Source of the DNA: Dehalococcoidia bacterium
Lineage (GTDB): Bacteria; Chloroflexota; Dehalococcoidia; UBA2979
Direction: 5' to 3'
DNA: 64,000 bases
Assembly (NCBI GenBank): GCA_965219085.1
Contig: OZ244720.1
Span: 1,856,001-1,920,000 of the forward strand
The translations under genes were made by a program, and so were the position numbers. The notes beneath the pieces were generated by a model that saw nothing but the letters and a program-made list of their open reading frames with translations, searched no databases and was not told where the DNA came from. Position 1 is the first letter of the stretch. Every line of letters starts with the position of its first letter. This document shows positions 5,067-61,600 of this stretch, one piece after another.

Positions 5067-5102
5067 CCACGAGTAGCGCAGCGTTTGGTGTGGATTGGAA
5101 AA
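5067..5102 (-). other. Conserved 36-bp junction motif, copy 1, abutting the helicase break
   Basis: TTTTCCAATCCACACCAAACGCTGCGCTACTCGTGG; 34/36 identical to 10802-10837 and at the same offset from the helicase ET codons. Confidence 0.75.
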
Positions 5103-5110
5103 CCGAGACC

Positions 5111-5870
5111 TCCGTTTCGTACCAGCAGATGGTGGGGAAGTCGACGAGGTCGAGGCCCGTCTGCACCAGCCGCAGATGGCAGACGAGCACGTCGACGCCC
5201 TCCTCGACCCGCTGCGCCACCCAGGCCTCGCGACGTTCGGGAGCGACGGATCCCGGCTTAATCACCGCGACCGTGAAGCCGTGGCGAGTGAGGAAGTCGT
5301 CCATCCGCTCCGTGATGTCACGCGTTCCCGTGTGGGTGGCGTAGACCAGCACCCGCCGGCCCGCCAGGCGCTCGGCGGCGACGAGGTCGACGAGGGACTG
5401 CTCCTTCGGGTAGAGCTTCTCCTCGGAGAGGGGAGGCACCTGGATGAGCACCTCCCCGGACTCCGGGTCGAAGACCGTCTCGCCGCGCGTGCAGCCGTCC
5501 GGGTAGGCCAGGAGCGTCTGCAGGTAGGTGGCCAGCAGCCGCTTCGAGCCCTTCGCCAGCACTTCCGTGAGGGCGGCGCGCAGCGTCTCGAAGACGGAGT
5601 CGTAGGCGCTCCGCTGGGAGAAGCCGCTACCGTCCTCCTCGTCGTCCATCGAGGAGAGCAGCACCCGCTCCTCGTAGGGCGGCAGCCCGGAGGCCACGTC
5701 CGAGAGGCGCAGGAAGATGCTGGCGCCGATGAGGTGAAAGAGCGCCGCGGGGGCGAGCCCCGGCCGCTCCCGGATCACCTTGCGGTACTTGCGGCGGCGG
5801 CTCGTGCGCCCGTCCTCGAGCGACTCGCCGTCGTCGCGCCCGATGGTGTGCTCGACGAAGCCGTAGCGCC
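5111..5870 (-). pseudogene. Internal fragment of ICE-type SF2/SNF2-like helicase, ending at WYET
   Basis: RRVLVYATHTGTRDI and LVQTGLDLVDFPTICWYET motifs. The start is cut by the IS110 end; the end is replaced by the junction motif. Confidence 0.85.
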
Positions 5871-7373
5871 CTATCTTCTTCGTCAAGGCCATCGGGCTCC
5901 TGAAGCTGGCTGAGTCGACGTCATCACGCGGCGACCGGACGGTCGTGCGGGATCTTCGCCCGGTACGGCCGGCGCGAGCGGAGCATGGCCAGGATGACGT
6001 CGCAGCGCCGGCGCGCGAGGCAGATGACCGCGGCGTTGTGTCGCTTCCCCTCGGCGCGCTTGCGGTCGTAGAAGGCCCTCGAGGCGGGGTCTCGCAACGA
6101 GGCGAAGGCGGCGAGGAACATCGCGTTCTTGAGCCTGTGGTTGCCGCGCCGGCTGCGCGCCTCGCCGCGGAGGCTGGAGCCCGACTGGCGTGTCACCGGC
6201 GCGAGTCCGGCGTAGCTCGCGAGCCTCGATCCGTTAGCGAAGCGGGAGCCGTCGCCGATCTCAGCGAGGATCCTCGACCCTGTCCGGGGGCCGATGCCCG
6301 GCAGCGTCCGGAGGATGCGTCCGAAAGGGTGTGCCTCGAAGAGGGCCTCGATCTCGGCCTCGAGCCGCTTGCGGCGCTCCAGCGTGCGGTCGAGTTCGGC
6401 GACCACCTCGGCGATCACGCGCCCCGTCACGGCCTCGACGGGCACGACGACGGTCTGCGCGTCGAGGGCCTCGGCGACGGTCGCGGCCAAAGCCTTCGCG
6501 AGGCGCGGCGAGCGCTTCCGCACCACCCGCGCGATCCGGCCGCGCCCGGCCGCAGCCAAGGCTTGGGGCACCGGGTGGCGGGTGAGGAGGTCGCGTACGC
6601 CCGGATGGTGCAGCCTGGGACCCAGAACGCGCTCCAGGGCCGGGGACACGCTCGTCAGCCGTCCCGCAGCCGGTTGGAGAGCCGCGTGGCGTCCGCGGCG
6701 AGGTCGGTGTCGTAGCCGTTGAGGACGCGCAGCTGATCGAGCAGCTCGTCGTCGCCGGCGTCGAGCCAGTGCACCTGGTGGCGCCGGGTGCGGCCGGTGT
6801 CGGCGATCACGAAGGCGTCGCGGCGGTCGGTCTTGGCCTCGCCCGGGTAGAGGTCGGCGGCGCGGCGCATGACCAGGCCGGGCACGTATGCGACCGGCAC
6901 ACCGAGGCGCGCAGCGACGGCGAGCACGAGGCTGGCGAGCGAGCCGGGCTGGTCGACGACCAGCGCAGGGGTACCGAGGGCCTGGGCGCGGCCGAGGAGC
7001 GCCTCGATGTCGGCCTCGCCGTTGGCCACGGCGCCGGCGAACAGCGGCGAGCCCGCGGCGTCCAGCACTTCAGCGAAATGTTCTGCCTTGCCGATGTCGA
7101 GGCCAATCCACACGTCGATGTCGTCGGGCGTTCCCACTGCGGCTCCTCATGGGTGCTTCGTCCACTCGTCCGGAAGGCCGCAGGTGCGCGCGCCGTCATC
7201 CACCTTACGAATCAGCGATCAGGTCGCATGTCCCCATCAGAGGTTCACGCACCGAGCAGCGCCGGTGGCAACACCCCCCAAGGCCGTCGAGCGACAGGGG
7301 GCACTGAGCCATGCCGGCACTGCCGGACTCCCGGCCCGGGAACCTACCCAGGCCGCAGGAAGAAGGTAAGGGG
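5871..7373 (-). mobile_element. IS110-family element (IS900/actinobacterial type, upstream non-coding region)
   Basis: Transposase 7137->5924. Right end carries TTGACG (-35-like) and appears truncated. Left junction reads CATGCGTACCCCCT|TAC. Confidence 0.8.
5924..7137 (-). pseudogene. IS110 transposase split by a 1-bp frameshift near 6660
   Basis: WIGLDIGK, VVDQP and KTDRRDA in 6655..7137; PGIGPRTG, LASYAGLAPVTRQSG and GNHRLK in 5924..6649. Confidence 0.88.
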
Positions 7374-7454: not shown

Positions 7455-7617
7455 CGTCTCAGGTGCATGGACTGGTCTGTCGAGCGTGATGCACATGCCT
7501 CCCGCAGCACGGATCCAACTCCATGGCAACGTACCACCTTGTTGTGAACCTTCAGTGGACAACAGGCCCGCTACGATGACAGTCCGGTGGACATTCTCAG
7601 GAAAAAGCTACGGAGGA
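7455..7617. promoter_or_regulatory. Conserved intergenic element, copy a (orphan)
   Basis: CATGGCAA..TACCACCT..TGAACCTTCA..GATGAC-N5-GGTGGA, homologous to the copies at 37205, 50526 and 55055. Confidence 0.65.
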
Positions 7618-8890
7618 GTTCGCCCTCGACGGCGAGGGAGCTTTGCAGCTTCTTCGCCACCAGCTTGAGGGCGTCCGCCTGGAGGGTGTTCCGGTAGGCC
7701 ATGAAGACGACCTGCACGGGCTGCGTCTGACCCACTCGTCACGAGCGCCGTGACGCTGCCGCATCGTGTAGACGCTGTAATCCGTCTCGTACCAAGCGAT
7801 CGTCGGGAACTCCACGAGGTCGAGGCCCGTCTGCGCGAGCCGGGGGTGGCAGACGAGCACGTCCACGCCCTCCTCGACGCGCTTCGCTACCCACGCCTCG
7901 CGGCGCTCCGGCGGCACCGCGTCGGCCTTCATCAACGCGACCCGGAAGCCGTGCCTGCCCAGAAAATCCTCCATCCGCCCGGTGATGTCGCGCGTGCCCG
8001 TGTGCGTGGCGTAGACGAGCACGCGGCGGCCTTGCAGCCGCTCGGCGGCGGCGACGAGGTCGACGAGCGCCCGCTCCTTGGGGTAGAGCCTGTCCTCGGG
8101 GAGCGGCGGCACTTGCACGAGCAGCTCCTCGCTCTCCGGATCGAAGACCGTCTCGCCCTGCGTGAGCCGTCGGGGTAGGCGAGCAGCGTCTGCAGGTAGG
8201 TGGCGAGCGGACGCCTGGAGCCCTTCGAGAGCGCGTCGGCGAGCGCCGCCCTGAGCGTCCCGAACAGCTCGTCGTAGCCCGAGCGCCGCGAGAGCCCGTT
8301 CCCGTCGGCTTCGGTGTCCATCGAGGAGAGCAGCACGCGCTCCTCATAGGGCGGGAGCCCCGACGCCACATCGGACAACCGTAGGAAGACCGAGTTGCCG
8401 ATGAGGTGGAAGAGCGCGGCGGGGGCGAGCCCCGGGCGCTCGCGCACGACCTTGCGGTAGCGCTTGCGGCGGCTCGTGCGCCCGTCCTCGAAGGAGTCCG
8501 GGTCGTCGCACCCGATGGTGTGCTCGACGAAGCCGTAGCACTCGATCCAGCGGCCTTCTTCCGCCCGCCCGAACTCCCCCCGGATCTCCGGGCTGAACCG
8601 ATAGAGGAGATGGAAGAGCGTCGAGGAGTAGCCACCCATGAGGGTGCCCGAGAGGCTAAGCTAAGCGACTTGGCGCAGGCGTCGGCGAGGACGCCGGCGG
8701 CGATGCCTGGGCGGAGCCGCGCGCCTTGAACTCGTGCACCTCGTCGCCGATCAGCAGCTCGAAGAAGCCCCGCAGGCGGTGCTTCACGTAGTCGCTGAGC
8801 GGGTAGCGCTTCGGGCCCGTGCGACCCGCGCTTGCCCATGGAGGAGCGCTCGCGGAAGTTGTCGAGCTCGATCTTGCCGATCCGCGCCGC
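7613..8890 (-). pseudogene. Longest SF2 helicase relic, with several frameshifts
   Basis: LIGDEVHEFK (motif II, ~8725-8755), SGTLMGGYSS (motif III), QTGLDL, intact WYETDYSVYTMRQ, and KKLQSSLAVEGEL. Confidence 0.85.
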
Positions 8891-10714
8891 GGTCAGATCA
8901 CCGTCGCCGCCGGGGTTACCTTCGACACCGCGACGACAGACACGTACAGCGTCACGGTCGAGGCCGATGACGCGAACGGCGGTAGCGCGACCGTCGAGGT
9001 GACCATCACCGTCACGGCCGGCCCGACGGAACCACCGATCATCGTCGCAGGTGGGGGCGGTGGCGGCGGTGGGCCCTCGGGACCCAGCCCCAGCAGCGTG
9101 GACTTCGAGTGGACCGTGAAGCTCGACATCGAGGCGCTGGACAGCGGCCACGACAAGCCGACCGGGATGTGGTCGGACCGGACGACCCTCTGGCTCCTCG
9201 ACAACCCAGACGGCGCTGGCGACGCCGTCTACGCCTACGACCTCGACAGCGGCGAACGCGTCGAGGAGCGTGAGTTCGCACTCGATGGGACGAATCGCGC
9301 CCCGCGGGGCATCTGGTCCGATGGCGAGACGCTGTGGGTCGCCGACAGCGGCCAGGACCGCCTCTTCGCGCACGATCTCGCCAGCGGCGAGCGGCTACGG
9401 GACCGCGACATCGTGCTCCACGAGGACAACGAGGACAGCCGCGGCATCTGGTCTCGCGACCGGATCATGTGGGTGCTCGACAGCCGCACGGATGCGCTGT
9501 TCGCCTACAACCTGACGTCCGGTGAACTCCTCGGCGAGTACGCCCTCGACGACACCAACGGCGACCCCCACGGTATCTGGTCGGATGGCGTCGGCGTCTG
9601 GGTCTCGGACCATGGGCGGAAGCGGCTTCTCGCCTACCGGCTGCCCGCGCTGCCGAATGAGCAAGAGCCCTCCGGCGAGGACATGTCACTCGAACGCGTC
9701 GGTGATGAGGACTTCAGGGAGCTGAGCGGCGCCAGCAACAACAGCCCGCGCGGCATCTGGTCCGACGGCGACGTCATGTACGTGGCCGACGCCAGCGACG
9801 ACAGGGTCTACAGCTACAACATGCCCGACGCGATCGACGCGCGCCTCGCCTCGCTCACCCTGAGCGGCATCGAGATCGGGGCGTTCGATCCCGGCCGCGA
9901 GGAGTACGAGGGGGTCGTCGCCGAGGGCGTGACCGAGACCGTCGTGACAGCGGAGGCGATGCAGCGCGGCACGGATGTCGCCATCGACCCGCCCGACGCC
10001 GACGAGGAGGCGGACGGCCACCAGGTAGCGCTGGAGGGCCTCGGCGAGATCACGGTCACCGTCACCTCGGCCGACGGCAGCCGCACGAAGAGCTACCGCG
10101 TGGCCTTCGGCGACGCCGGACAGGAACCGACCCCCGAGCCGTGGGCACACTGCCTGCGCGGCGACATCGCCGAGGGCTTCAGCCTCGTCGTCTCCGAGGG
10201 CGGCAGCGTCGAGGACCTCGTGGCCTGCGCGGAGAGCCGGGATGTCGTGACCCTCTACGCGCTGCACGAGGGTGTCTACGTCTCCTACATCCTCGGAGCG
10301 CCGGAGTGGGTGAACGCGGGCTTCGCCGGGCTGTTCGCCGGTGGCGTTCCCCCGTTCACGCCGCTGACCGTCCAGAGCGGCGGATCGCCTTCAGCCGACC
10401 CGAACCGCGGCGACGGCGCCCTGCTGCCGGGGCCGGAGTGCCTGCACGGCGAGATCGCCGAGGGCTTCAGCCTCCTCGTCTCCGAGGGCGGCAGCGTCGA
10501 GGAGCTCGTGGCCTGCGCGGAGAGCCTGCACATCACGGCCCTCTACGACCTGCAGGACGGAGAGTGGGTCTCCTACATCCTCGGCGCTCCGGAGTGGGTG
10601 AACGAGGGCTTTGCCGAGCTGTTCCCGGACGGCATTTCACCCATCACCCCATTGGTCGCCAAGGGGCCCGTGCCTACGGCCGATGCGACTCAAGCCGGCG
10701 CGGCAAGCCGGTAG
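8819..10714 (+). CDS. N-terminally truncated surface protein: partial cadherin domain, Gly8 linker, WSDG-repeat beta-propeller, cadherin-like beta-sandwich, two Cys repeats
   Basis: Closely similar to the C-terminal modules of 11596..37011 and 58640..64000. The first ~25 codons are antisense helicase sequence, so the start is chimeric. Confidence 0.8.
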   Translation: MRPALAHGGALAEVVELDLADPRRGQITVAAGVTFDTATTDTYSVTVEADDANGGSATVEVTITVTAGPTEPPIIVAGGGGGGGGPSGPSPSSVDFEWTVKLDIEALDSGHDKPTGMWSDRTTLWLLDNPDGAGDAVYAYDLDSGERVEEREFALDGTNRAPRGIWSDGETLWVADSGQDRLFAHDLASGERLRDRDIVLHEDNEDSRGIWSRDRIMWVLDSRTDALFAYNLTSGELLGEYALDDTNGDPHGIWSDGVGVWVSDHGRKRLLAYRLPALPNEQEPSGEDMSLERVGDEDFRELSGASNNSPRGIWSDGDVMYVADASDDRVYSYNMPDAIDARLASLTLSGIEIGAFDPGREEYEGVVAEGVTETVVTAEAMQRGTDVAIDPPDADEEADGHQVALEGLGEITVTVTSADGSRTKSYRVAFGDAGQEPTPEPWAHCLRGDIAEGFSLVVSEGGSVEDLVACAESRDVVTLYALHEGVYVSYILGAPEWVNAGFAGLFAGGVPPFTPLTVQSGGSPSADPNRGDGALLPGPECLHGEIAEGFSLLVSEGGSVEELVACAESLHITALYDLQDGEWVSYILGAPEWVNEGFAELFPDGISPITPLVAKGPVPTADATQAGAASR

Positions 10715-10801: not shown

Positions 10802-10837
10802 CCACGAGTAGCGCAGCGTTTGGTGTTGATTGAAAAA
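10802..10837 (-). other. Conserved 36-bp junction motif, copy 2
   Basis: TTTTTCAATCAACACCAAACGCTGCGCTACTCGTGG, following helicase WFET. Confidence 0.75.
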
Positions 10838-10845
10838 CTGGCAAC

Positions 10846-11020
10846 TCCGTCTCGAACCACACGATCGTCGGGGAGTCGACGACGTCCAGGCCCGTCTGCA
10901 CGAGCCTGGGATGGCAGACGAGGACGTCGGCGCCTTCCTCGACCCGCTTCGCCACCCACGCCTCGCGGGCGCTCGGGCGGCACGGCGTCGGCCTTCATGA
11001 CCGCGACCCTGAAGCCGTGT
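10846..11020 (-). pseudogene. SF2 helicase fragment ending at WFET
   Basis: MKADAVPPER..., VLVCHPRLVQTGLDVVDSPTIVWFET. Confidence 0.8.
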
Positions 11021-11028
11021 GTTCCGAT

Positions 11029-11595: not shown

Positions 11596-37011
<25,416 letters not shown>

Positions 37012-38727: not shown

Positions 38728-38781
38728 GCTGCGCTACTCGATTCAATTGCGCGCGAGTGAAGCTCTGCCTGTCAGACACGG

Positions 38782-44200: not shown

Positions 44201-44255
44201 GCTGCGCAACCCGACCTAAATTGCGCGCTAGTGAAGCTCTGCCTGTCAGACATGG

Positions 44256-47200
44256 TCAGCTCGATGCCCGCGTGATCGCGATGGTGTAGGCCTGCGTCGT
44301 GACGCCGTCGCCGGCGGTGACGGTGACGGTGATCGTGGTCGTCGAACCCGCTGTCAGATTCACCTGGTGGCCGTCGCTCAAGCTGTCGGCGTCGGTGGGC
44401 GAGATCACCACCGTCGCCTGGGTGTTGGTCGCGCCCGTCGTGACCGTGGTCGAGGCCACATCGTTGTCGACCGAGAGCGTGTAGCTGACCGTGTCGCGGT
44501 CGAATTCGAGGTCGATCCCGCTGAGCTCGAGACTGAGAAGTTTCGCGTTGGTCTTCCAGGGGGAGTCGAACGCCGGCGTGTCGATCTCGGCGCCGTCGTA
44601 GCCCCAGCACGTAATCGTGCTGTCGGTCCGCAAGGCGCAGGCATGGGGATACCAGTCGATCGATACGGTCTTGAAATCGCTCGCGGTCAGTCCGCTCAAA
44701 CTCGTCAAGAGGGAGCCGAGACTGCCGCCATGGCGCGTCCAGCACTTGATTTGGCCCGTCTCTGTGACGCCGCAGGTTCGCGTGTAGTGCACCTGAAGGT
44801 GCTGGAACTTGTCAGTGGGGGCTGCTTGCTCGTCCTCCGTGTAACTGGTGTTCTCGGCGGAATCTTGCCCCGTCGTCGCGGCGAACTTGTTCTGCAGCGA
44901 GTGATCTCCGTATCGCCAACACAACACGGTGCCATCGACATCCGGGTCTGTGGCATCCGAACGAATCCCGCACACTCGATATCCGCCGACCTGTAGGAAC
45001 TTGAACGTGCCCGTTGGCACGGCGCGAGCCCCGTGATTGCTCCAACACACGGCTTCGTCGTCGTTGTCGATGGCGCAGGCGATGTAGCTGCCGACGCTGA
45101 TTGAGGTGTAGGTACCTGACGACGGCGGTCCGGCCATGCCGGCCCCGCAATCGACGGTGCCATCGGCGTTCAGCCAGCAGACTCCATCGAGGTTGTTGGT
45201 GTTGACCTGTTGCTTGGGACCAGAACCATCCGGCTGGTAGTCGCGCTCCCAACAGGTTGCGGAGCCGTCGTCACGGATGGCGCAGGTGCGGTCGAATCCA
45301 GCGATGACCTGGGTGAAGATGCCCTCAGGTGTGTCCGCTTGCCTGGCACACACCCAGCGCCCGTCATACGGACCGCCTTCGCAGCGCTCCTTCAGATTTT
45401 CCATCTCGCCCCAGCACTCCAGCGTGCCGTCCATGCGGAGGGCGCACGCGTGCCGCCAGCCGGCGTCGACCTGCTGGAACCCGCCGACCGCCTCGACCAC
45501 CTGCTTCACGACGACGGGGTTGTCGACCTTGACGATGGTCTTGATGGCGCCAACCAGTTGCTCGCCGTCGGAGTTGACGGAGTCGTCCGACTGAACCGAC
45601 TTGGCGGTGCTGTCCGAGTTGTCGGTGGTCAAGGACAGTTCCTTGACGTGCTGGCCGGCCGTCACCGTGAGCGAGAGTTCGTAGGTGCCGGTCCAGCCGC
45701 TCTCCGCGCCGGCGGCGATGTAGTACTCGCCGTCGGTCGATGGGGTGAATGAGGCGACACGGCTGTCCTTTCCGGTGCCGTTCACCTCGGAATCGCTGCC
45801 CGCAATCAGGATGCTGTCGCCGCCGTAGACGCCGAGCAGCTTGGGATCGACCAGCGTGCCCAGGGTGACGAACGCCGGCGCGCCGTTGACCAGGACCCAC
45901 TCGCCGCTCGACTTGCCCTTCATGTCGAACTGGTAGGTGACGCCGCCGACCAGCGCGACCTTGTACCAGTCGACGTCGCCTTCGGCGTCGATTTCGCCGA
46001 TCACGCTGCCGCCGACTTCGAGCACGCCAGTCGTGCTCGGGTCGTGGGGCAGATCACCGTCGCTGGGCGGAGTCGTGTCGATCACCCGGACCCCGTACGT
46101 GCCGGTCCCGCGACTGCCGGAGGTAAAGTCCTCGCGACTGCGCACCACGACGTAGTAGGTGGAATCCTCGGTCGGCTGGAACTCGTAACTGCCGGTCCCG
46201 TTGCCGCCGTCGCGGTCGTGGGACAGCGCGCTGCCGTCGCTGTCGTAGACCGCCCGCAGGTAGGGCAGGCCGAGCGTGTAGTCGTTGTCGCCGTCGGCCG
46301 AACTGACCAGGTCGAGGTAGTAGGTCTTGCCGTCGCCGCCGGTCAGATCGAGCTGGAACCAGTCGTGCTCCTCCTCGGCCGTCTCAATCGAGGCGTCCGT
46401 GGTCGTGCCCAGCGTCAGCGTGACCGGCGTCACGTCGGGGAACGTCTCGAACAGCGTTTCCTCCGGCGTCGGCGGCGCCAGCGGCGGCGGAATCTCGGGC
46501 GGCTCCTGGATCGTGAGCGAGAAGCTCCTCGTGCCGTGTCCCGGCTGGCCGCCGATTCGCACGTAGTAGGTCCCGGCTTCCTTCGGCCTGAAGGTACCGA
46601 TGTTGGACTTGGCGATGATCGTGCCGTCGGACTTGTAGATCGCCCGTCGGAAGACCTCACTGCTCTTGTTCAGCGCCGTCTCGTACTCCGTGCCGGCCTC
46701 GAGCTCGACCGAGAACCAGGCGTCGCTGTCGTTCGGCGGGAACTTGACTGTGCCGCGGATCGACTGGCCTTCGGTCGCCGACTTGGCGGAAATCTCGGCG
46801 AAGCTGTCCGCGTCGAGCGCCTCAACCTCCGTCACGGAGACCTCGTACGGGCCGATCATGCGGACGTCATCGCCGCAGCATGCGTTGTGGCCGAGGTCGA
46901 TGTAGTAATCGCCCGTGCGCGTCGGCGTGAAGACGATCTCCATCGTGCGGTGACGCCAATAGTCGCCGTCCCAGCGGGTGCCGGGCAGCGGCTTGGACTC
47001 GTCACCGAAGCGAATCCCGCCAATCCCAACGACCTCGTCGATAATGTGGTCTCGCCCGAACGTGCCATGAGCGCGCAGCTTGTAGGACTTGCCCGCTTCC
47101 ATGGCGACGACGTACCAGTCGTGGTCGGACGACTTCTCGAAGAAGCCGTTGACCTTGGTGCCGTCGATGCTCAGGCGCGCGGTCGTGCTGGTGTTGTTGG

Positions 47201-50200
47201 GCAGATCGGGTTCCGTCGGGGTGACATCGGTCACCGAGACGCGGTAGTCGCCGAGGAACCGGTTGTACCGAGAGGAAGCGTCCGGACTGACCACCAGGTA
47301 GTAGGCGCCGCTCTTGGGCGCGCGGTACAACGCGCGGGCGTTGCGGCCGTCACCGGAGTCTTCGTCATCGGCGCTGTTGAAGACGCTGATCTGGGGGCCC
47401 GGCAGGACGATCGTGTAGAGGTTCGGGTCGGGCCAGGGACCGACCTTGGAACCGGGCACGACGGCCGACTCGACGTCGACCTGGTAGATGCGGCCCGCAG
47501 TCAGATCGACGGCGATCCAGTCGGTGTCGCCGCCCTGCCACAGCCGGTCGTGGTTGTACTCGATGTCGTAGTCGTCGCTCCAGCGGACCCAGTCGATCCG
47601 ACCCAGCATCGAACCGCCGACCTCGACCCGACCGTGCTGGCCCGGACCGATGTCCCAGATCGGGTAGGAGCGGCCCTGGTCGTCCCTTGTGCGGGTCTCG
47701 CGGAAGTCATCCTCAACCCGCACGACGGTAAACGTGTATGGCTCGGTTCCCCGCCATCTCTCGTTGTAGTAGGGCGAGGTCGAGACGCGGAAGAAGAACA
47801 GGCCGCTGCGCCCCGGCGTGAGGATCGCCTCCTGGTATCCGACATCGACATCCTCGCGACTGAGTGAGTGCATCACGTACTCGGCGCCGTCGGCGTGCTC
47901 GTAGTCATGCTGAACCGCCGACGTCTGCCACGTGAGCACATTCCAGATGGTGCTCGGGTTGCGGCTGCGCACCACGACGGCGTACCGGACGCCCTTCTCC
48001 AGCTCGACGCCCACCCAGTCGGTCCCGTAGGCGCCGCCGCCGTATGTCCCGGGGTTGTCGTCGACGGCGTCGTGTCGACCAGTAATCGTGTCGCCGACCT
48101 GGGCGCGACCCAGGGTCTGGCCGTCATGGCTGAACTCGACGGTGCCGGACTCGGAGATGTTGCCGCTGACCGAGTAGCCGAGCTCGTAGCTCTGCGTGCC
48201 CGAGCCGGCGGGCACGGCGATCCGGATGCGGTAGTCGCCCGCGCGCAAGACGGCGGAACGCGCCTGGCCGTCGCCGTCGTTGGCGCCGGAGCTGAGCAGC
48301 GCGCCGGTCGATGAGTGCAGGTGGATGCCGACGCTCTGCGTGTTGAGCGTCAGGCTCACCTCGCGCACGTCGGTCAGGTTGAACGTGTAGTAGACCTCTG
48401 CCGTGCTCGCGCCGGTCTGCGTGCCCGAGCTGCCGTGCGGGGTGATGTCGCCGATATCGGTCGCGGTGGGCAGATCAATCTCCACAGCGGTCGAGGCGTC
48501 GCTGGCCGTCTCGCCGATCAGGGCGATCACCTGGTAGCCGTACTTGGCGCCGAGCATGACACTGTCATCGGCAAAGCTGACAGCGCTGTCGGACGTGTTC
48601 TCGACCAGAGTCGTGTAGCTGTCGGCCGCGTCGACATCGCGGTCACGGCGCAACACGCGGTAGCCCGTGACTACGTCGAGCGAGGGACCGTCCCAGGTCA
48701 GAGAGACCGCGCCGGCGCCGGCGGAGACCGTCGCCGCCAGCCCGGTCGGCGCGTCGGCCGGCGTATCGACCTCGATTTCGTCCGACTCGGGGCTCAGCCC
48801 GCTGCCGTCGAGCGCGCGGATCCAATAGGCGTACTTGCTGGCGGTGTCGACGGTGTTGTCGACAAACGACGTGGCGGTCGAACCGGTGTCGTTGTTGACG
48901 ATGACCGTGACGCTCGGGTCAACGTCGCGCTCGCGGCGCAGAATGCGGTAGCCGGTCAGCGAACTGTCATCCGGGTCGTCCCAGCCCAGCGTGACCGCGT
49001 CCGCGGTCGCCGTGGCGCTCAGGCCGGTCGGCGCATCCGGCGCCGACGGCAGGTCGGCCTCGACGGCGGTCGGTTCGCTGGCGAGCCCTTCGTGCAACGC
49101 CAGGACCTGCCAGGCGTACTGGCCGCCCGCGCTCACACCGGTGTCGAGGTAGCTGGTTCCGGAACCGTTGTCGGCCATGATCACGGCAAACGCGCTGCCG
49201 GCGACGGCGCGGTCGCGGCGCGTGATCTTGTAGCCGGTCACGCTCGCGTCGCCTGGATCATCCCAACTCAGCGTCGCCGAGGTCGTGGTCACGCTGACCG
49301 TCAGGCCGGTCGGCGCCGGCGGCGCCCCGACCATGTCGCCCTCGATGGTCGCTGGAACACCCACGATCTCGCCGCGCAGGGCGATGACTTGCCAGGCGTA
49401 CTTGCCGCCGGTACTCAAGCCGCTGTCTTCGTAGCTCGTGCCTGTCCCGCTGTCGGCGACGATCTGCACGAACTCGCTGTTTTCGATATCGCGGTCGCGG
49501 CGCGTAATCCGGTAGCCGGTGATGCTCGCGTCGCCCGGATCATCCCAACTCAGCGTCGCCGAAGTCTTGGTCACGCTGACCGATAGTCCGGTCGGCGCCG
49601 GCGGCGGTGGCGGGACGGCCTGCGTATCGGCCCTGACGTAGGTCGACTGCGGGCTCGGGCCGTGGGCGTTGATCGCCTTGACCCGGTAGACGTAGCGAGT
49701 CGAGGCTTCGACCGTCGTGTCCGTGAACCTGACCGCGGCGCTGCCCGTGTCCTCGACGATGATGTCGAAGCGTCCGACCTCGTACACATCCCGCAGCCGG
49801 CGCAAAATCTGATACCCGGTCACGCTTGAGTCCAGGACACGGTTCCAGCGCAGCTCGACCGCGTCGTGGCTGACCGACACCACCCGAACGCCCATTGGCT
49901 TCGCCGGCGGCTCACTGACCGTCTCCGGATCGCCCGGCGAAGACACTTCCCCTGGCGTATACAACGTCACTGTGCCACCCACCGCGACGGACTCGGCCGC
50001 GCTCTCCACCCAGCTCAAACTCAGCGCGACCGTGTCGTCCTCGGCCCACACCTGCGTGGTCGCCCAGACGTAGGAGGTAATTCTGGTGCTCTTCACCTGA
50101 CTCGCATCGGCGGAGGCGAACTCGGTCCCGTCCACCGTCAGGACGAAGTCGTCGCTCGGCTCCGGCTTCAGGTTGAAGGCCAGAAAGCCGTTCGACAGCA

Positions 50201-50525
50201 GCATCGCCACGACCTCGATCAACTGGTCATCCTCGTTGAACGTGTTCTCGCTGAGCGTGCCCATCCCGCCCTGGAAGATGCTGTAGCCGTGGGTCGTCTG
50301 GCTGCCCGTGCCGTGCACGCCCACGGTCAGGGTCGCGGTCCAGGCCGCCGAGCTTTCGCTCTCGACCGCGTCCACGCCTTGTTCGCCCGAGGCCGGCAGC
50401 ACGCCCGAGAGCGCACAGGCGAAGATGAGCGCAATCAGCGTCGCTGAGACGGCGACTGCGCGCAGGGCCGACCTCCCGCCCTTCTTCCAAATCGATCCTG
50501 TGGCGGGACGCTGGATAGCGGTCAT
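44256..50525 (-). CDS. Surface protein A (~2,090 aa): signal peptide, five FN3, several PPC-like domains, RCC1/BLIP-II-like repeats, cadherin-like C-terminus
   Basis: ALIFACALSGVLPASG signal; FN3 motifs; D.DW[FY].V.L PPC-like repeats; VDAGW.H.CALRMDGT..CWG repeats. Start may be 50525 or 50576. Confidence 0.9.
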   Translation of the reverse strand: MTAIQRPATGSIWKKGGRSALRAVAVSATLIALIFACALSGVLPASGEQGVDAVESESSAAWTATLTVGVHGTGSQTTHGYSIFQGGMGTLSENTFNEDDQLIEVVAMLLSNGFLAFNLKPEPSDDFVLTVDGTEFASADASQVKSTRITSYVWATTQVWAEDDTVALSLSWVESAAESVAVGGTVTLYTPGEVSSPGDPETVSEPPAKPMGVRVVSVSHDAVELRWNRVLDSSVTGYQILRRLRDVYEVGRFDIIVEDTGSAAVRFTDTTVEASTRYVYRVKAINAHGPSPQSTYVRADTQAVPPPPPAPTGLSVSVTKTSATLSWDDPGDASITGYRITRRDRDIENSEFVQIVADSGTGTSYEDSGLSTGGKYAWQVIALRGEIVGVPATIEGDMVGAPPAPTGLTVSVTTTSATLSWDDPGDASVTGYKITRRDRAVAGSAFAVIMADNGSGTSYLDTGVSAGGQYAWQVLALHEGLASEPTAVEADLPSAPDAPTGLSATATADAVTLGWDDPDDSSLTGYRILRRERDVDPSVTVIVNNDTGSTATSFVDNTVDTASKYAYWIRALDGSGLSPESDEIEVDTPADAPTGLAATVSAGAGAVSLTWDGPSLDVVTGYRVLRRDRDVDAADSYTTLVENTSDSAVSFADDSVMLGAKYGYQVIALIGETASDASTAVEIDLPTATDIGDITPHGSSGTQTGASTAEVYYTFNLTDVREVSLTLNTQSVGIHLHSSTGALLSSGANDGDGQARSAVLRAGDYRIRIAVPAGSGTQSYELGYSVSGNISESGTVEFSHDGQTLGRAQVGDTITGRHDAVDDNPGTYGGGAYGTDWVGVELEKGVRYAVVVRSRNPSTIWNVLTWQTSAVQHDYEHADGAEYVMHSLSREDVDVGYQEAILTPGRSGLFFFRVSTSPYYNERWRGTEPYTFTVVRVEDDFRETRTRDDQGRSYPIWDIGPGQHGRVEVGGSMLGRIDWVRWSDDYDIEYNHDRLWQGGDTDWIAVDLTAGRIYQVDVESAVVPGSKVGPWPDPNLYTIVLPGPQISVFNSADDEDSGDGRNARALYRAPKSGAYYLVVSPDASSRYNRFLGDYRVSVTDVTPTEPDLPNNTSTTARLSIDGTKVNGFFEKSSDHDWYVVAMEAGKSYKLRAHGTFGRDHIIDEVVGIGGIRFGDESKPLPGTRWDGDYWRHRTMEIVFTPTRTGDYYIDLGHNACCGDDVRMIGPYEVSVTEVEALDADSFAEISAKSATEGQSIRGTVKFPPNDSDAWFSVELEAGTEYETALNKSSEVFRRAIYKSDGTIIAKSNIGTFRPKEAGTYYVRIGGQPGHGTRSFSLTIQEPPEIPPPLAPPTPEETLFETFPDVTPVTLTLGTTTDASIETAEEEHDWFQLDLTGGDGKTYYLDLVSSADGDNDYTLGLPYLRAVYDSDGSALSHDRDGGNGTGSYEFQPTEDSTYYVVVRSREDFTSGSRGTGTYGVRVIDTTPPSDGDLPHDPSTTGVLEVGGSVIGEIDAEGDVDWYKVALVGGVTYQFDMKGKSSGEWVLVNGAPAFVTLGTLVDPKLLGVYGGDSILIAGSDSEVNGTGKDSRVASFTPSTDGEYYIAAGAESGWTGTYELSLTVTAGQHVKELSLTTDNSDSTAKSVQSDDSVNSDGEQLVGAIKTIVKVDNPVVVKQVVEAVGGFQQVDAGWRHACALRMDGTLECWGEMENLKERCEGGPYDGRWVCARQADTPEGIFTQVIAGFDRTCAIRDDGSATCWERDYQPDGSGPKQQVNTNNLDGVCWLNADGTVDCGAGMAGPPSSGTYTSISVGSYIACAIDNDDEAVCWSNHGARAVPTGTFKFLQVGGYRVCGIRSDATDPDVDGTVLCWRYGDHSLQNKFAATTGQDSAENTSYTEDEQAAPTDKFQHLQVHYTRTCGVTETGQIKCWTRHGGSLGSLLTSLSGLTASDFKTVSIDWYPHACALRTDSTITCWGYDGAEIDTPAFDSPWKTNAKLLSLELSGIDLEFDRDTVSYTLSVDNDVASTTVTTGATNTQATVVISPTDADSLSDGHQVNLTAGSTTTITVTVTAGDGVTTQAYTIAITRASS

Positions 50526-50662
50526 GTCGAGAGCCACGCAACTGCCTCCTGTGTAGCACGGGCCAAGCCATGGCAAGGTACCACCTGGCTGTGAATCTTC
50601 AATGGAAATAAGCCCACTGCGGTGGCAGTGCGATGTACACTCGGAGAAATAGGCTACGGAGG
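50526..50662. promoter_or_regulatory. Conserved intergenic element, copy c, directly upstream of surface protein A
   Basis: CATGGCAAGGTACCACCT, TGAATCTTCA (50592), GGTGGC (50621), GCTACGGAGG. Confidence 0.7.
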
Positions 50663-50809
50663 TAACAAGACCAAATGCGTGAGTTTCGGGCTCTCTTCCG
50701 TGAGCTTTAGTGAGGACTTATTTGATTCCGGGTATGGGCCTGCTGGCGGACGCAGAGACGCTGTCGGGGAAGCCGTCCAGGGCGCCACCCTGACGCCCTG
50801 CCGGAGTTG

Positions 50810-50893
50810 CGCGGGCTGCGTCCGGCCGATGCGCCACGAGCGCCGGGACGCCTGCCGCATCGTGTAGATGCTGTAATCCGTTTCGTACCAAAC
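50810..50893 (-). pseudogene. Short SF2 helicase fragment WYETDYSIYTMRQASRRSWRIGRTQP
   Basis: Direct translation; matches the other helicase relics. Confidence 0.8.
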
Positions 50894-50912
50894 AGGCGCA
50901 GACAGGGAAGCG

Positions 50913-50978
50913 TCAGTTGGCTTGCGGAGTGCCCTCGCTCCGGATGACGAGCGGTGTGATCGAGGGCAAACCTTCGGC
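50913..50978 (-). pseudogene. 3' stub of a surface-protein gene (AEGLPSITPLVIRSEGTPQAN*)
   Basis: Matches the end of the Cys-repeat module (AEGLPPLTPLVARSDGPAEAN* at 58640). Confidence 0.75.
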
Positions 50979-51390: not shown

Positions 51391-51392
51391 CC

Positions 51393-58053: not shown

Positions 58054-58620
58054 CTAACGCTCCGCGCCGACCAGTTCCCGCTCGCGCTCCCGGTCGAGCG
58101 CCCACTCGAACAGCCAGAGCGTCGGAGCTTCGTCCCGACGGCGCCGCCCGGGCTCGACCTGCTCTTTCGCCATGAACTCCGCCCACGAGAACAGCGACCG
58201 CGGCGGCTCGCCAGCGTCGTCGCGCCGGTCGTCCGCGTCCACCCCGACCGTGACGGTTTCGACGGCCACCGGCTCGGGCTCGGCCCAGCCGTCGTCGATT
58301 AGCAGCGCCTCGGCGTCAGCGGCCACCTGCTGCGCTTGCGTGAAGACCGACTCGACCGAGTCGGCGTCCTCCTCGCCGGAGACGATCCTGCGCGCGAGCG
58401 CGAGCATGAGGTCGTCGCCGTCGTCACCGAGAGCGGCGAGGCCGTCCTCGGGCAGCTCGCCCTCCACCGCCAGCGACGATTGGAGCTTCTTCGCCACGAG
58501 TTTGAGGGCATCCGCCTGGAGGGTGTTCCGGTAGGCCATGAACACGACCTGCACGGGCTGCGTCTGACCGATGCGCACGACCTGCGCGAAGCCTGCCGCA
58601 TCGTGTAGACGGAGTAGTCG
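58054..58620 (-). pseudogene. C-terminal half of the SF2 helicase, beginning exactly at DYSVYTMRQ
   Basis: DYSVYTMRQASRRS, frameshift, then RIGQTQPVQVVFMAYRNTLQADALKLVAKKLQSSLAVEGEL...FEWALDRE...*. Confidence 0.85.
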
Positions 58621-58639
58621 GCCCCGGTAGCGAGAGCGA

Positions 58640-61600
58640 TCAGTTGGCCTCGGCAGGCCCATCGCTCCTCGCGACCAGCGGTGTGAGCGGGGGAAGGCCC
58701 TCGGCGAACAGCTCCTTGAACTCGCGGTTCACTAACTCCGGCGCTCCGAGGATGTAGGAGACCCACACGCCGCCGTGCAGGGCGTAGAGGGCCGTGACCT
58801 GCTGGCTCTCGGCGCACGCCTCCAGTTCCTCGACGCTGCCCCCCTCGTGGATGAGCAGGCTGAAGCCCTCGATGATGTCGCCGCGCAGGCACTCCGGCCC
58901 CGGCAACAGGGCGCCGTCGCCGCGGTTCGGGTCCGCAGATGGCGGCCCGCCGCTCTTGACGGTCAGTGGCGTCACGGGGGGCAGGCCCTCGGCGAACAGC
59001 TCCTTGAACTCGCGGTTCACTAACTCCGGCGCTCCGAGGATGTAGGAGACGTAGACGCCGCCGTGCAGTGCGTAGAGGGCCGCGACATCCCGGCTCTCCG
59101 CGCAGCTGACCAGCTCCTCGACGCTGCCGCCCTCGAAGACGACGAGGCTGAAGCCGACCGCGATGTCGCCACGCAGACAGTGTGTCCACGGCTCGGGTGT
59201 CGATTCCTGTTCGCCTTCGGCGAAGGCCACGCGGTAGGTCTTCGTGCGGCTGCCGTCGGCCGAGGTCACCGTGACGGTAATCTCAGTGACTCCGCTAAGA
59301 GCTATCTGGTGGCCGTCCGCTTCCTCGTCGGCGTCGGGCGGGTTGATGGCGATGTCCGTGCGCCGCTGCATCGCCTCAGCGAGAACGGTCGTCTCCGTCA
59401 CGCCCTCGGCTACGATGCCCTCGTATTCCGGCCGGCCGGGATCGAACTCCCCGAGGTCGACGCCGCTGAGCGTGAGCGAGGCGAGGCGGGCGTCGATCGC
59501 GTCGGGCATGTTGTAGCTGTAGACCTTGTCGTCGCTGGCGTCGGCGACGTACATCACGTCGCCGTCGGACCAGAGGCCGCGCGGGCTGTTGTTGCTGGCC
59601 CGGCTCAATATGGTGTTGGGGAACTCCTCGTCGCGGACGCGCTCGAGCTCCTTGTCGCCCTCGTCCTCCTCGTCCGCGTCCGGCTCCCCGGACAGCACGG
59701 GCAGGCGGTAGGCGAAGAGCCGCTTGGCGCCGTGGTCGGAGACCCAGACCGTGACGCCGTCGGACCAGATGCCGCGCGGGTCGTTGTTGGCTGCGTCGAG
59801 GGCGCACTCGGCGAGCAGCTCGCCGCTCTCCAGGTCGTACACGAAGACGCTGTCCTTGCCGCCGTCGAGCACATACATCCGCTCGCCGTCGGACCAGATG
59901 CCGCGGGCCTGGCGGTTGCGCGCCGCGAGTTCGATGTCGCGCTCCGCGAGGCGCTCGCCGCTCTCGAGGTCGTGGGCGAAGAGCTTGTTCTGGCCGCTGT
60001 CGGAGACCCAGAGGATCTTGATCTTGCCATCCGACCAGACGCCGCGGGGCGCGCGGTTGCGCTCGTCGAGCTCGAACTCACGGTCCTCGATGCGCTCGCC
60101 GCTCTTGAGGTCGTAGGCGTAGATCGCGTCGTCGGCGCCGTCGCCGTTCTCGAGGAGCCAGAGGATGGAGCCGTCGGACCACGAGCCCGTGGGCATGTCG
60201 TGGGTCGAGTCGAGCGACTCGATGTCGTGCTTGACCGTCCACTCGAAGTCGATGGTGCTCGGCGAGGGCCCGCCGCCGCCGCCACCGCCACCGCCGCCAC
60301 CGACGAAGCCGACGACGCCACGGGTCGTGGGAGCAGCGGTCACCGTGATGGTCACCACGATAGTGGCGTCCGAGGTGGTAGACGCGACGTACAAGGCGTT
60401 GAAGCCGTCGTGGACGGACACCGTGAAGGTGTAGCTGTCCTTCTCCGTACTGTCGAGGACGGCCTTCGTGCGGATCTGGCCGGTGGCCGCGTCGATGTCG
60501 AAGGCATTGGCGTCCGCCCCGCCGAGTGAGTAGGTGAGGACGTCACCCGTGTCCACGTCGGTCGCGCGTACGGGCGCGCCGACGCTCCGGCCTGCTGCCG
60601 TGCCTGCAGAAACGGTGCGGGTAGCTGTGGCTTCTGCGAACGTCGGCTTGGTGTTCGCCGCGGGCCTGGCGTCGCCGACAGGCGTCTGCAGCGTGGCGGA
60701 TGCCGTCTTGCCGCTGCCCAGCCTGTCCGTATAGGTGGCGGTCGCCCGCAGGTACTGGTTGGCGTCGGCGTCGGCTTCCATGTAGCTGTACGACGTTGCG
60801 CCCGTGATATCCGTCCAGCTGCTCCTGCCGTTGGGCGACCGCGCCCACTGCCAGGTCGTGCCGCTGATGGAGCCGTCGCCGTCGCTCAGGTCGGCGATGA
60901 ACTGTGTCACGTCGTCCAGCCAGCCCCGGGGCGGGGAGATGGTCACGACACCCTCTTCCTCCTCGTCCGTAACAGTGACGGTCACGGACAGCGAGCCCGG
61001 CTGGGGTTTCGTGGCGTCGTCGTCGATGGCGGAGACAGTCACCGCGTAGGTCGTCTGACCCTCGAAGTTGGGCGGCGTGCGGAAGTAGAGCTCGCCCCGG
61101 CTGGAGATCCAGAAGTCGTTGGAGAATGCCGACCTTGCCGACCATGTGAATTTGTCGCCCTCCGGGTCAGTCGCCCGGTAGCTCGCCACCATGGAGCTTG
61201 AATTCTCCTCGATCGAGGCGGTGCTGGGGCCCGTCACGACCGGCGCCTCGTTGACGTTCGTCACCGTGATGGTCACGTTCTGCGTGTCGTCGATGGCGTC
61301 CATGTCGTCGGCGCCGCTCTCGTCCTTGCCATCGCTGACTTGCACGGTGACGCGGTAGGTCCGCTTGCCCTCGTAGTCGAGTTCCACGCCCGTCGCCACC
61401 CGCAGTTGCCCGTCGCTGTCGATCTCGAACGAAGCGGCGTCCGTCCCAGTCAGGGAGTAGGTCAGCATGTCGCCCTGGTCGGGATCAACCGCCGACACGG
61501 GCGCGCCAACGTTGTCGCCCGCCGGGGTGTCCTCCGGCACGCTGCGCAGTCCGTCCTCCGTCGACAGGAAGGCGGGGTCCAGGTTGGCAACGCCGACGAC

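Follow-up and report, generated by a model that had tools for sequence, protein, structure and literature searches.

A site within the helicase gene of an ICE very probably serves as the attB for a family of integrative elements that depend on a large serine recombinase (LSR) for their movement. Our analysis started from a 64,000-nt stretch of a Dehalococcoidia genome (the window), and the interpretation draws on the anatomy of the junctions, the identity of the recombinase, dyad symmetry, empty and filled sites, and independent insertion events, all of which we observed. In the proposed scheme, the attB would consist of the W-[YF]-E-T|D codons of a DUF6094-methyltransferase/SNF2-like helicase gene carried by a T4SS-type ICE, with a 2-bp GA crossover (CA in one lineage). 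Integration would join the N-part of the helicase gene to the P' arm of the element, which contains a repeated motif, and would join the helicase C-part to the P arm, which the final LSR codons make up. Only an LSR module of ~3 kb and a 44-nt P' block are constant, with exchangeable cargo in between: here a toxin-antitoxin pair and the gene for a giant cadherin-like adhesin, and defence-like genes in relatives. The window itself has two decayed attL remnants, one unoccupied pseudogene site, two joints between an adhesin gene and the helicase C-part, and no LSR.

Junctions in the window

The junctions were verified base by base and by self-BLAST, and helicase copies were surveyed genome-wide by BLAST with a 5.2-kb reference (33 HSPs; q denotes reference coordinates). 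The following features were annotated:

1607..2713 (+): IS110-family transposase gene, a bystander away from the junctions
4039..4272 (-): scrambled helicase 3' pieces (q4589-4665 at 4272 to 4197; q4306-4465 at 4198 to 4039)
4386..4954 (-): cargo remnant directly inside attL-A, AF2212-like antitoxin (4682-4954; PF01954, E 4.4e-08) and PIN-domain toxin (4386-4685; PF01850, E 1.5e-05)
5067..5110 (-): P' arm of attL-A, 44-nt conserved block including the 36-bp motif (5067-5102)
5111..6192 (-): helicase N-part fragment A (BLAST homology 5111-5875, open frame to 6192)
6655-7146 (-): partial second copy of an IS110-family transposase, a bystander away from the junctions
7617..8823 (-): helicase copy B, unoccupied attB (q3078-4279; GA at 7782/7781)
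8807..10714 (+): 3' fragment (635 aa) of a cadherin-like surface-protein gene, converging on attL-C
10802..10845 (-): P' arm of attL-C, 44-nt block
10846..11019 (-): helicase N-part fragment C (q3942-4114), ending at GA (10847/10846)
11596..50576 (-): three tandem giant surface-protein genes, at 11596-37011 (8471 aa), 38928-44126 (1732 aa) and 44256-50576 (2106 aa), identified through their resemblance to Pfam-scanned copies in DNA and in the C-terminal domain
50808..50915 (-): surface-gene stub joint, class I (stop 50913-50915; 22-nt linker 50891-50912; helicase 50890 to 50808)
58066..58619 (-): helicase C-part (q4113-4694), beginning exactly at GA
58620..63841 (-): cadherin-like surface-protein gene (58640-63841, 1733 aa) with a 20-nt linker (58620-58639) running up to the C-part

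The sole Rfam matches in the window are to a group II intron (3038-3882), and the window has no tRNA.

The initial annotation had proposed that two diverged helicase copies end at the same base, and the minus-strand fragments (5875 to 5111 and 11019 to 10846) bear this out. Both align with copy B (8823 to 7617) as far as base 7781, and fragment A, which aligns over q3350-4114 (85% to the reference copy), has the A of the GA crossover (5112/5111) as its last base. The break lies within the GA dinucleotide of the codons W-[YF]-E-T|D. Copy B, rightly recognized as an unbroken site, is intact across this position; it is a pseudogene that becomes garbled ~20 nt past the site and is cut off at 7617. 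A table of breakpoints throughout the genome shows five N-parts that stop at the identical base, q4114. The C-parts start at q4113 (four), at the W codon (q4101/4102; two), at q4120/4122 (two) or at q4163 (two), and two helicase copies span the site.

The 36-bp motif at 5067-5102 recurs at 10802-10837 with two mismatches (34/36), as had been reported, and 0.00 such repeats are expected by chance (100 shuffles). It had been placed 8 nt beyond the helicase end; the motif is present, but genome-wide the conserved block is 44 nt long and abuts the junction directly (5110 to 5067 and 10845 to 10802), and the apparent gap is merely its more variable inner portion. The impression that the motif is better conserved than the helicase proved mistaken, since mean pairwise identity over five copies in the genome is 0.88 both for the block and for the 100 nt of helicase next to it. 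In the same copies, identity over the next 100 nt inward of the block (0.62) equals the random level (0.62).

The P' arm is followed by the same type of toxin-antitoxin interior in the relative G015 as at attL-A, and the scrambled 3' pieces together with attL-A are one decayed insertion. At attL-C, the stop of the 635-aa fragment lies 87 nt from the P' block, which is the arrangement of an intact 26.6-kb element elsewhere in the genome (rc(P') at +96 after the fragment and at +79 in the intact element). Neither attL remnant has a matching attR. The view of the island as a stack of events is borne out for the first 11 kb of the window, which are a pile of decayed copies.

The disrupted gene encodes DUF6094, N6_Mtase, ResIII and Helicase_C domains and is thus a methylase plus helicase gene. 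Near it lie genes for a VirB4/TraC-like ATPase, a TrwB-type coupling protein, a Replic_Relax protein and a separate LSR of the host element's own; the host element is a T4SS-type ICE. An SSB-like ORF in this element was named by eye only. The genome as a whole is rich in duplicated ICE and adhesin DNA.

Recombinase, attachment sites and inserted elements

The helicase site is the attB of an LSR integrative element, and the 36-bp motif is part of the P' half of its attP. As stated by the initial annotation, no recombinase is visible in the window; the LSR for this site is absent from it and is found outside, at ~358 kb and at 2.59 Mb of the genome. The protein (597 aa) contains Resolvase (PF00239, 1.9e-24), Recombinase (PF07508, 2.5e-18) and Zn_ribbon_recom (PF13408, 2.4e-09) domains, and its closest solved relatives are the SPbeta YokA/SprA, TP901-1 and A118 integrases. 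The two copies (100% and 90% aa) each run into the P arm and then into the helicase C-part at GA. Since the 358-kb copy has an in-frame TGA, perhaps just one copy is functional in this genome. The co-occurring serine recombinase that had been suggested as a check thus exists: the 3' end of its gene is the P arm GTGTCGATTGCCAAACCGGAGCC, and this arm abuts the C-part at the same GA in all six readable loci from five genomes. These six have the pattern inside the fetched stretch, and four more loci are too short or fragmentary. Orthologues in G018, G001, G003 and G008 (83-92% identity) have the same P arm and C-part next to them. The LSR gene is located at one end of the inserted DNA, adjoining the attachment site, and its product probably catalyses the integration events at the helicase site. 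No recombination directionality factor was identified. The LSR clade comprises 1195 relatives at E <= 1e-20, including sister specificities with GA, CA or AC crossovers.

P and rc(P') match at 18/25 positions and form an inverted repeat, a degree of symmetry reached by 0/20000 random dyads (mean 7.2 matches, sd 2.4). Pseudo-palindromic attP sites with 25-bp half-sites are described for LSRs in PMC3783163. Dyad symmetry of attB is weak (12, 8 and 5 of 25 in three alleles). GA alone (CA in one lineage) is common to all four site types, including attL, attR and attB; in G018 it is CA that stands in attL as well as in attR, and empty sites of the CA type also occur. Translated in the frame set by the LSR ORF, the attL-A block encodes RSRFSNPHQTLRYSW..., and continuing this frame into P' yields a conserved tail of 20-24 aa followed by a stop in 8/10 attL. 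Because the reading frame appears to cross attP, the LSR would carry different C-terminal tails in the excised and integrated states. The chromosome has a P|GA|P'-like junction at 816 kb, which fits the expectation between tandem copies.

One intact, contiguous insertion is present in this genome, with the N-part at 2620898 to 2616826, the 26.6-kb element, and the C-part from 2590188. A genus scan, in which 14/19 genomes matched, added 17 full-length unoccupied sites and 5 further attL junctions in relatives. The elements of this genome (G000, 26.6 kb), G018 (17.2 kb) and G003 (at least 20 kb) have only the ~3-kb LSR module and P' in common, and their cargo is mutually unrelated. The initial annotation was right about units with adhesin or toxin-antitoxin cargo: different cargo, including a 4532-aa adhesin-type gene and the AF2212-like/PIN pair, has been inserted independently. 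Cargo in relatives includes defence-like genes, and the examined cargo showed no genes of phage type. A Replic_Relax protein is encoded in the 26.6-kb element, whereas the large ORFs covered in the partly scanned G018 and G003 elements yielded none.

The comparison of empty and filled alleles that had been proposed is provided by G015, where two loci are the same up to GA (246/247 nt identical) and then continue with P' in one, filled, and with the helicase C-part in the other, empty. Descent of all broken copies from a single clade had been set beforehand as the refuting outcome, and across the genus the AU test rejected one clade both for the six attL N-parts (p = 0.0032) and for the three attR C-parts (p = 0.0036). 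Restricted to the four attL copies from this genome, the test does not reject one clade (p = 0.095). The attL and attR trees are poorly resolved, with one and two well-supported branches, respectively, and recombination among helicase copies may blur such trees. The same-base breaks, the empty and filled sites and the independent insertions uphold the proposal that the helicase codons are a site-specific attachment site.

Surface-protein joints and alternative explanations

Two joints in the window connect the end of a surface-protein gene with helicase sequence. For the first, the C-half had been placed at 58620, 19 bp past the stop; the joint exists, but GAC starts at 58619, 20 nt beyond the TGA (58640-58642) of the 1733-aa gene, whose product has Cadherin, Cadherin-like and Big_12 domains. 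The second, a stub (..PQAN*) near a helicase piece, is as described, with the stop followed by the 22-nt linker and by TGGTACGAAACGGATTAC from 50890. In this class-I joint the helicase fragment begins at the W codon and retains an attB-like site.

Such joints had been taken as the complementary halves of the N-part and motif junctions, and as independent events. Neither view held: the actual partner of those junctions is the 3' end of the LSR gene (6/6 readable loci), and the adhesin joints share their linker, with three testable copies compatible with one clade (AU p = 0.31), the outcome that had been set beforehand as refuting, here for this half of the proposal. Most begin 12 nt upstream of the crossover (19 nt in the relative G013), so that the whole attB-like site is kept, which is B-type and not a P half-site. 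Canonical LSR chemistry alone does not yield joints between an adhesin stop and the C-part. The adhesin joints are hence not canonical element ends and fit a single old junction that was duplicated later. Those in the window most likely stem from one older rearrangement that kept the attB-like site and was copied along with the adhesin genes.

It is possible, though unlikely, that a single LSR family also recombines half-sites beside adhesin genes and at other secondary targets with helicase sites and in this way assembles, deletes and reshuffles the giant-adhesin arrays; the attL of one insertion may then recombine with the attR of another. With similarly low probability, the landing site preserved after each adhesin gene would amount to a site-specific adhesin-cassette system in symbiont-type Chloroflexota. 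Hints of reshuffling come from unrelated left partners that join the C-part or the P' arm at the identical GA, such as a type-IV flank whose partner is the C-part in G001 and G018 and P' in a Tepidiformaceae record, from an adhesin-linked site with a P' arm at genome position 865917, and from the att-related sequence next to all 15 adhesin ends of the '...AN*' subtype.

Less probable again, we consider, is that the adhesin 3' end with its ~20-nt linker is itself a P-type right end, so that LSR-less cassettes would be mobilised in trans and stacked by successive integrations. By eye, 15/15 adhesin 3' ends of the '...AN*' subtype lie beside the LSR module or beside sequence that derives from the helicase or an att site, and BLAST places a helicase C-part at most 57 nt past 7 of 35 surface-gene ends examined. 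Some copies have the linker fused to the C-part, and the one at 865917 has it fused to a P'-like arm at GA; five same-strand adhesin and C-part units lie at 298-361 kb and three in or just beyond the window; and the 58619 joint falls exactly at GA, the last 9 nt of its linker matching the P arm at 8/9. However, most joints hold the 12 nt (19 nt in G013) of helicase B-arm before GA, adhesin genes of this subtype normally have the linker as their 3' UTR, also where the gene converges on P', the three testable C-parts fit one clade, and the 58619 copy is the sister of a class-I copy at 1924143. Furthermore, neither genome BLAST nor the genus scan found an N-part broken at the W codon, so the reciprocal product is absent.

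It is very improbable that there is no site-specific system at all and that a single ancestral break of the helicase was copied by duplication and transfer. Duplicated ICE and adhesin DNA is abundant in this genome, and its four attL are compatible with one clade, but this explanation is already largely refuted by the AU tests across the genus, by the nearly identical filled and empty pair, by the same 44-nt arm preceding unrelated cargo, and by the differing use of GA and CA among lineages; a dyad-symmetric attP with an adjoining LSR gene also suits a site-specific system. The faintest chance goes to another kind of element, be it an IS110-family (bridge-RNA-guided) IS, a cassette of the integron attC type, or an island with a tyrosine recombinase that leaves the 3' end of the target gene duplicated: IS110-family genes do occur in the window, and the adhesin and C-part units do look like 3' ends displaced by tRNA- or gene-end-integrating islands, but the IS110 genes are at least 1.5 kb from the junctions, the motif does not fold (z = +1.99, -0.59 and +1.37) and forms no attC-type imperfect hairpin, the window lacks tRNAs and has the intron as its only Rfam match, and the sites have 2 bp in common, not a long core. 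For an IS110-family IS in particular, a conserved body with a DEDD transposase would be expected behind the end, and identity is random 44 nt inside the junction.

Relation to known systems

LSR-driven integration into the ICE helicase gene, the explanation we favour, is of a known kind, since in streptococci the SNF2 (COG4646 methylase + helicase) gene of Tn5252-family ICEs is described as a host of serine-integrase IMEs, for example IME_SNF2 and the tet(O) fragment of ICESp2905 (PMC7168690, PMC5704250). Going by these descriptions, both systems have a serine-integrase element that site-specifically disrupts the methylase-helicase gene of a conjugative element, and both show many decayed copies, truncated targets, variable cargo and a nested (matryoshka) structure. 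They differ in the host, which is Chloroflexota-type here and Firmicutes there, in the cargo, which consists here of giant cadherin-like adhesins, toxin-antitoxin and defence-like genes and not of antibiotic-resistance genes, and in that a relaxase-like Replic_Relax gene was seen here only in the element of this genome.

Large serine integrases also include Bxb1 and phiC31, and gene-interrupting LSR elements are represented by skin/SpoIVCA and by SPbeta in spsM. Like the phage enzymes (A118/LI, SPbeta SprA/YokA, TP901-1), the present LSR has a three-domain architecture, and its element, like theirs and other gene-interrupting ones, inserts within a protein-coding gene. In contrast to phage LSR elements, the cargo examined contains no phage genes and the target is on another mobile element; moreover, the LSR frame appears to cross attP here, with the tail changing on integration. 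A pseudo-palindromic attP, a 2-bp crossover and half-sites of ~25 bp are shared with the phage systems as outlined in PMC3783163.

Decayed att-bearing elements that pile up side by side, and the P|GA|P'-like junction at 816 kb, recall the site-specific tandem accretion and CIMEs (cis-mobilizable elements) treated in PMC5704250. However, the repeated unit here keeps an attB-like site beside an adhesin gene, which is not described in the parts of that literature drawn on here. Accretion of an LSR element into attL or attR is also unexpected. As with integron gene cassettes, a single recombination site gathers varied cargo, but here an attC hairpin is lacking, the enzyme is a serine and not a tyrosine recombinase, and the units are of 17-27 kb and not single genes.

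Overall, our results extend the arrangement of an island in the helicase gene of a conjugative element from streptococci to a Chloroflexota lineage (Dehalococcoidia/Tepidiformaceae-type). For an LSR clade that is uncharacterised, attP, attB and the crossover are now defined, which could be of interest to those mining serine integrases for genome engineering. The integration route described here would provide a concrete way for giant adhesin and defence genes to spread and pile up in these genomes, and the reshuffling of adhesin arrays, if true, would represent a recombinase-driven diversification of surface proteins.

The attachment site and its probable recombinase

A BLAST search of the 5.2-kb reference helicase against the whole genome (a single contig of 3.31 Mb with 69.8% G+C) returned 33 HSPs and revealed a repeated break within the Asp codon that follows W-[YF]-E-T. 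The pieces 5′ of the break (N-parts) end at query position q4114 in five cases, and the pieces 3′ of it (C-parts) begin at q4113 in four, with an overlap of two bases, GA; the reference and copy B are the two copies that run through the site without a break. In the window, the minus strand carries pieces of this one gene family, in which a DUF6094/N6-methyltransferase and an SNF2-like helicase form a single fusion; the domains were assigned by Pfam on the full copy at genome positions 719395-723222.

Features of the window
31-777, left window edge: tandem repeat of about 175 nt per unit, copies 95-97% identical
Within 1-11600: IS110 and DUF772 transposase genes
Within 1-11600: attL-A, backed by a toxin-antitoxin pair, together with scrambled pieces of the helicase 3′ region
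Within 1-11600: attL-C, on which an adhesin-gene fragment converges, as in the intact element
3038-3882, minus strand: group II intron RNA (Rfam D1-D4 at 3747-3882, 95 bits; domain V-VI region at 3038-3190, 45 bits)
5875 to 5111, minus strand: helicase fragment A, stopping at the same base as fragment C relative to copy B
8823 to 7617, minus strand: helicase copy B, a pseudogene, continuous through the break point
11019 to 10846, minus strand: helicase fragment C, stopping at the same base as fragment A relative to copy B
11596-37011, minus strand: single open frame of 8471 aa
From 50890, minus strand: shorter helicase piece starting at the W codon, 22 nt past the stop of a surface-gene stub
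51139-53162, minus strand: Mu-transposase C-terminal fragment and Schlafen AlbA_2 + HATPase_c_4 protein, between the two adhesin-helicase joints
55214-57658, plus strand: GAF-PAS histidine kinase fused to receiver and Trans_reg_C domains, between the same joints
From 58619, minus strand: helicase C-terminal piece, 20 nt past the stop of a 1733-aa cadherin-like gene

The repeated break described in the initial annotation was confirmed with one-base corrections: fragments A and C end at the same base, and the accompanying 36-nt motif occurs twice in the window (0 and 2 mismatches), where none is expected by chance. The motif lies in a 44-nt block which follows all five N-part ends. Its supposed higher conservation relative to the helicase did not hold, as mean pairwise identity among the five copies is 0.88 both for the block and for the neighbouring 100 nt of helicase. 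Since identity in the next 100 nt inward is 0.62, as for 100-mers drawn at random from this genome, the block is a sharply bounded conservation island, not better conserved than the helicase gene.

A 597-aa ORF with Resolvase, Recombinase and zinc-ribbon domains ends in front of two of the four C-parts beginning at GA and matches the solved large serine integrases SPbeta YokA/SprA, TP901-1 and A118. The two copies of this large serine recombinase (LSR), 90% identical at the amino acid level, are located at genome positions 2591768 to 2589978 and 360225 to 358435, the latter with an in-frame TGA. As had been noted, no cognate recombinase is present within the window, and the nearest other LSR, 9.4 kb upstream of it, is 27% identical. 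At the first copy the arrangement is one contiguous insertion, in which an N-part (2620898 to 2616826) is followed by 26.6 kb of inserted DNA and a C-part from 2590188. P, the arm formed by the LSR 3′ end, and the 44-nt block form an inverted repeat around GA: the 25 nt of each that adjoin the crossover match at 18 of 25 positions, against a mean of 7.2 for random dyads of this genome, of which none in 20000 reaches 18. Serine-integrase attP sites have been described as pseudo-palindromic with 25-bp half-sites (PMC3783163), and the dyad has the architecture described there. In these terms the motif represents the P′ arm and the helicase codons represent attB; the junction of N-part and motif is attL, and that of LSR end and C-part is attR.

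The LSR frame runs on across the crossover and, when the element is integrated, passes through the helicase C-part in a frame different from that of the helicase. On the P′ side, in the frame expected on the excised circle, a conserved tail of about 20-24 residues leads to a stop (RSRFSNPHQTLRYSWAxxLPSxx*) in eight of ten attL. Judging from these reading frames, the C-terminus of the LSR would depend on the integration state, and conservation may extend past the 25-bp half-site because the P′ side encodes this tail.

Outside the window, a degenerate P-like arm meets the P′ block of genome positions 816104-816147 at GA. This attP-type junction within the chromosome is of the kind expected between tandem copies or after recombination of attR with attL of neighbouring insertions; adjacent to it, no LSR gene was detected.

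Other explanations of the motif were rejected. There is no tRNA in the window, its sole Rfam matches are to the group II intron, and the motif folds no better than its shuffles, which leaves no case for a tRNA or structured RNA. The IS110 genes were also checked, and an IS110 element as maker of the junctions was rejected, with identity at the random level past 44 nt.

Filled and empty sites in related genomes

A search of the LSR protein against 61 related genomes (E <= 1e-30) found matches in at least 16 (a floor; the first look used a stricter cut). Orthologues 83-92% identical in G018, G001, G003 and G008 are each followed by the same P arm and a helicase C-part; this order was seen in all six loci with the site in the fetched stretch, and four further loci are fragments. 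An 800-nt query centred on the site matched 14 of the 19 genomes of the genus scanned, and the relatives contain 17 full-length uninterrupted sites as well as five further attL junctions (G018, G008, G003 and two in G015). In G018 the crossover of attL as well as attR is CA instead of GA; empty sites of the CA type also occur. LSR relatives are named 'recombinase family protein' in MAGs of Chloroflexi, Chloroflexota and Dehalococcoidia.

The elements of the genome analysed (26.6 kb), G018 (17.2 kb) and G003 (at least 20 kb) have in common only the P′ block and about 3 kb, consisting of the LSR and ~830 nt upstream. Their cargo is unrelated.

Cargo of the three elements
Genome analysed: DUF4011/AAA_11/AAA_12/MTES_1575 helicase-nuclease, Replic_Relax protein, fn3 protein, 4532-aa adhesin-type gene
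G003: HEPN_Swt1 + DUF499; SNF2 + NOV_C proteins
G018: permease, RCC1-repeat protein, trypsin-like peptidase

In a species-representative collection, the P′ core pattern was found in 37 stretches, nearly all titled Tepidiformaceae, Dehalococcoidia or Chloroflexi, and a W-[YF]-E-T arm stands directly upstream of the core in nine of them. A sister type of the block (GTTCCCAGTTTCC.AATCGACACC...), distinguished by its AC crossover and by different left flanks, accounts for 17 of the 37. Repeats of the heptamer CACCGAC make up the left flank in eight of these 17, and one AC-type locus (L099) has the unintegrated form, in which an LSR gene continues at its 3′ end into P|AC|P′.

The comparison of empty and filled alleles called for by the initial annotation was provided by two G015 loci, which are identical at 246 of 247 nt up to and including GA and continue with P′ in one and with the helicase C-part in the other. 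In this common stretch, the helicase has the same upstream truncation at both loci and is preceded by 126 nt of unrelated flank.

Alternatively, all broken copies could derive from a single ancestral rearrangement that was later duplicated. For attL and attR this was not supported, since AU tests reject one clade both for six attL N-parts (p = 0.0032; tree of 25 rows and 401 columns) and for three attR C-parts (p = 0.0036; 27 rows, 350 columns), although both trees are poorly resolved. One clade was not rejected for the four attL copies of the genome analysed alone (p = 0.095; 25 rows, 401 columns), nor for the adhesin joints discussed below. Rows too short for trees were omitted; these include fragment C of the window, the two attL of G015 and the attL of G003. 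Precise excision, itself site-specific recombination, would also be expected to scatter the labels in these trees.

Assembled contigs (Logan) from four runs of one study, among 24 runs listed, contain 0.65-0.77 of the window's words and may originate from the source sample. The 20 runs from sponge, coral or reef metagenomes contain 0.08-0.14, which is taken as no evidence of habitat. Over window positions 3500-12500 the contigs are a few hundred bases long and end at repeats (for example 4164-5096, with 0 differences, ending inside the P′ block), so that they neither confirm nor question the junctions.

Adhesin joints and the composition of the window

Among 35 surface-gene 3′ ends with the family C-terminal domain, seven have a helicase C-part within 57 nt, all of the '...AN*' subtype. 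At most joints the usual ~21-nt 3′ UTR of the gene is followed by 12 nt of true helicase B arm (19 nt in G013), GA and the C-part. With this arm before GA, most adhesin joints, on sequence grounds, keep a whole attB-like site rather than half. At genome position 865917 an adhesin-linked site has a P′-like arm after GA and reads as if an element had landed there. Locus L090 was rejected as an adhesin-linked site in another species, with no adhesin gene end in the upstream 300 nt.

One clade was not rejected for the three testable adhesin-joined C-parts (p = 0.31), and no reciprocal product of the class-I joint (adhesin stop, linker and helicase from the W codon), namely an N-part ending at the W codon, was found among the BLAST HSPs of this genome or those of the genus scan. 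The simplest reading is that the adhesin joints represent one old junction at the edge of attB that was copied along with adhesin genes, each copy then decaying in its own way. The joint at 58619 is without the 12-nt B arm, and its C-part is sister to a class-I copy. Its 20-nt linker (58620-58639) fits about equally well a P arm truncated after deletion of the LSR module and an adhesin 3′ UTR (17/21 by eye).

Other unrelated left flanks also meet a C-part or P′ arm at exactly this GA. One (type III) is found in the genome analysed and in G003; another (type IV) directly precedes the C-part in G001 and G018, but P′ in a named record. Recombination between attL of one insertion and attR of another would give such a mixed pattern and offers a lead.

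Outside the window, genome positions 298000-362000 contain five adhesin-helicase C-part units on one strand, several of them separated by IS (DUF772-type) genes. The LSR module lies between adhesin gene and C-part in the first unit, and an fn3-type gene precedes the adhesin gene in this array as in the 26.6-kb element.

Window bases 1-11600 are a junkyard of decayed pieces. They are followed by three tandem giant adhesin genes, the class-I joint, unrelated genes (Schlafen/AlbA_2, DoxX and a hybrid histidine kinase) and a further adhesin gene with its C-part joint. The group II intron stands immediately downstream of the scrambled helicase 3′ pieces and, given its extent of only about 850 nt, probably has no ORF or intron-encoded protein. 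In the last 5 kb of the 8471-aa frame (about 13500-16700), a ~100-aa C-terminal domain of other surface proteins recurs several times. A local intergenic family of ~100-150 nt has four copies with 74-82% identity (window 7451-7553, 37191-37430 and 55051-55200; genome 1923311-1923416); copies stand upstream of the 8471-aa gene and the histidine-kinase gene, and helicase copy B is truncated (7617) right beside one.

The host element and its precedent

The designation of the host gene as an ICE-type helicase proved apt, as a VirB4/TraC-like ATPase, a TrwB-type coupling protein and a Replic_Relax protein adjoin the reference helicase. An SSB-like ORF, named by eye only, is also nearby, and a second, unrelated LSR lies at the edge of the host element. 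Among the papers listed by a literature search on conjugative elements of sponge Chloroflexi, none was relevant by title or abstract, which is not proof of absence.

Overall, the interpretation of the helicase codons as the target of a cassette system stands for the attachment site, the varied cargo and a recombinase encoded outside the window, but not for the anatomy of the units, which have the LSR gene as their right end; adhesin joints are secondary. In streptococci, serine-integrase IMEs have been described to target the SNF2 gene of Tn5252-family ICEs, which encodes a COG4646 methylase plus helicase, and these reports mention numerous defective copies as well as truncations of the target gene (PMC7168690; PMC5704250). 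Compared with the IMEs described there, our data reveal the same kind of arrangement in a different phylum.
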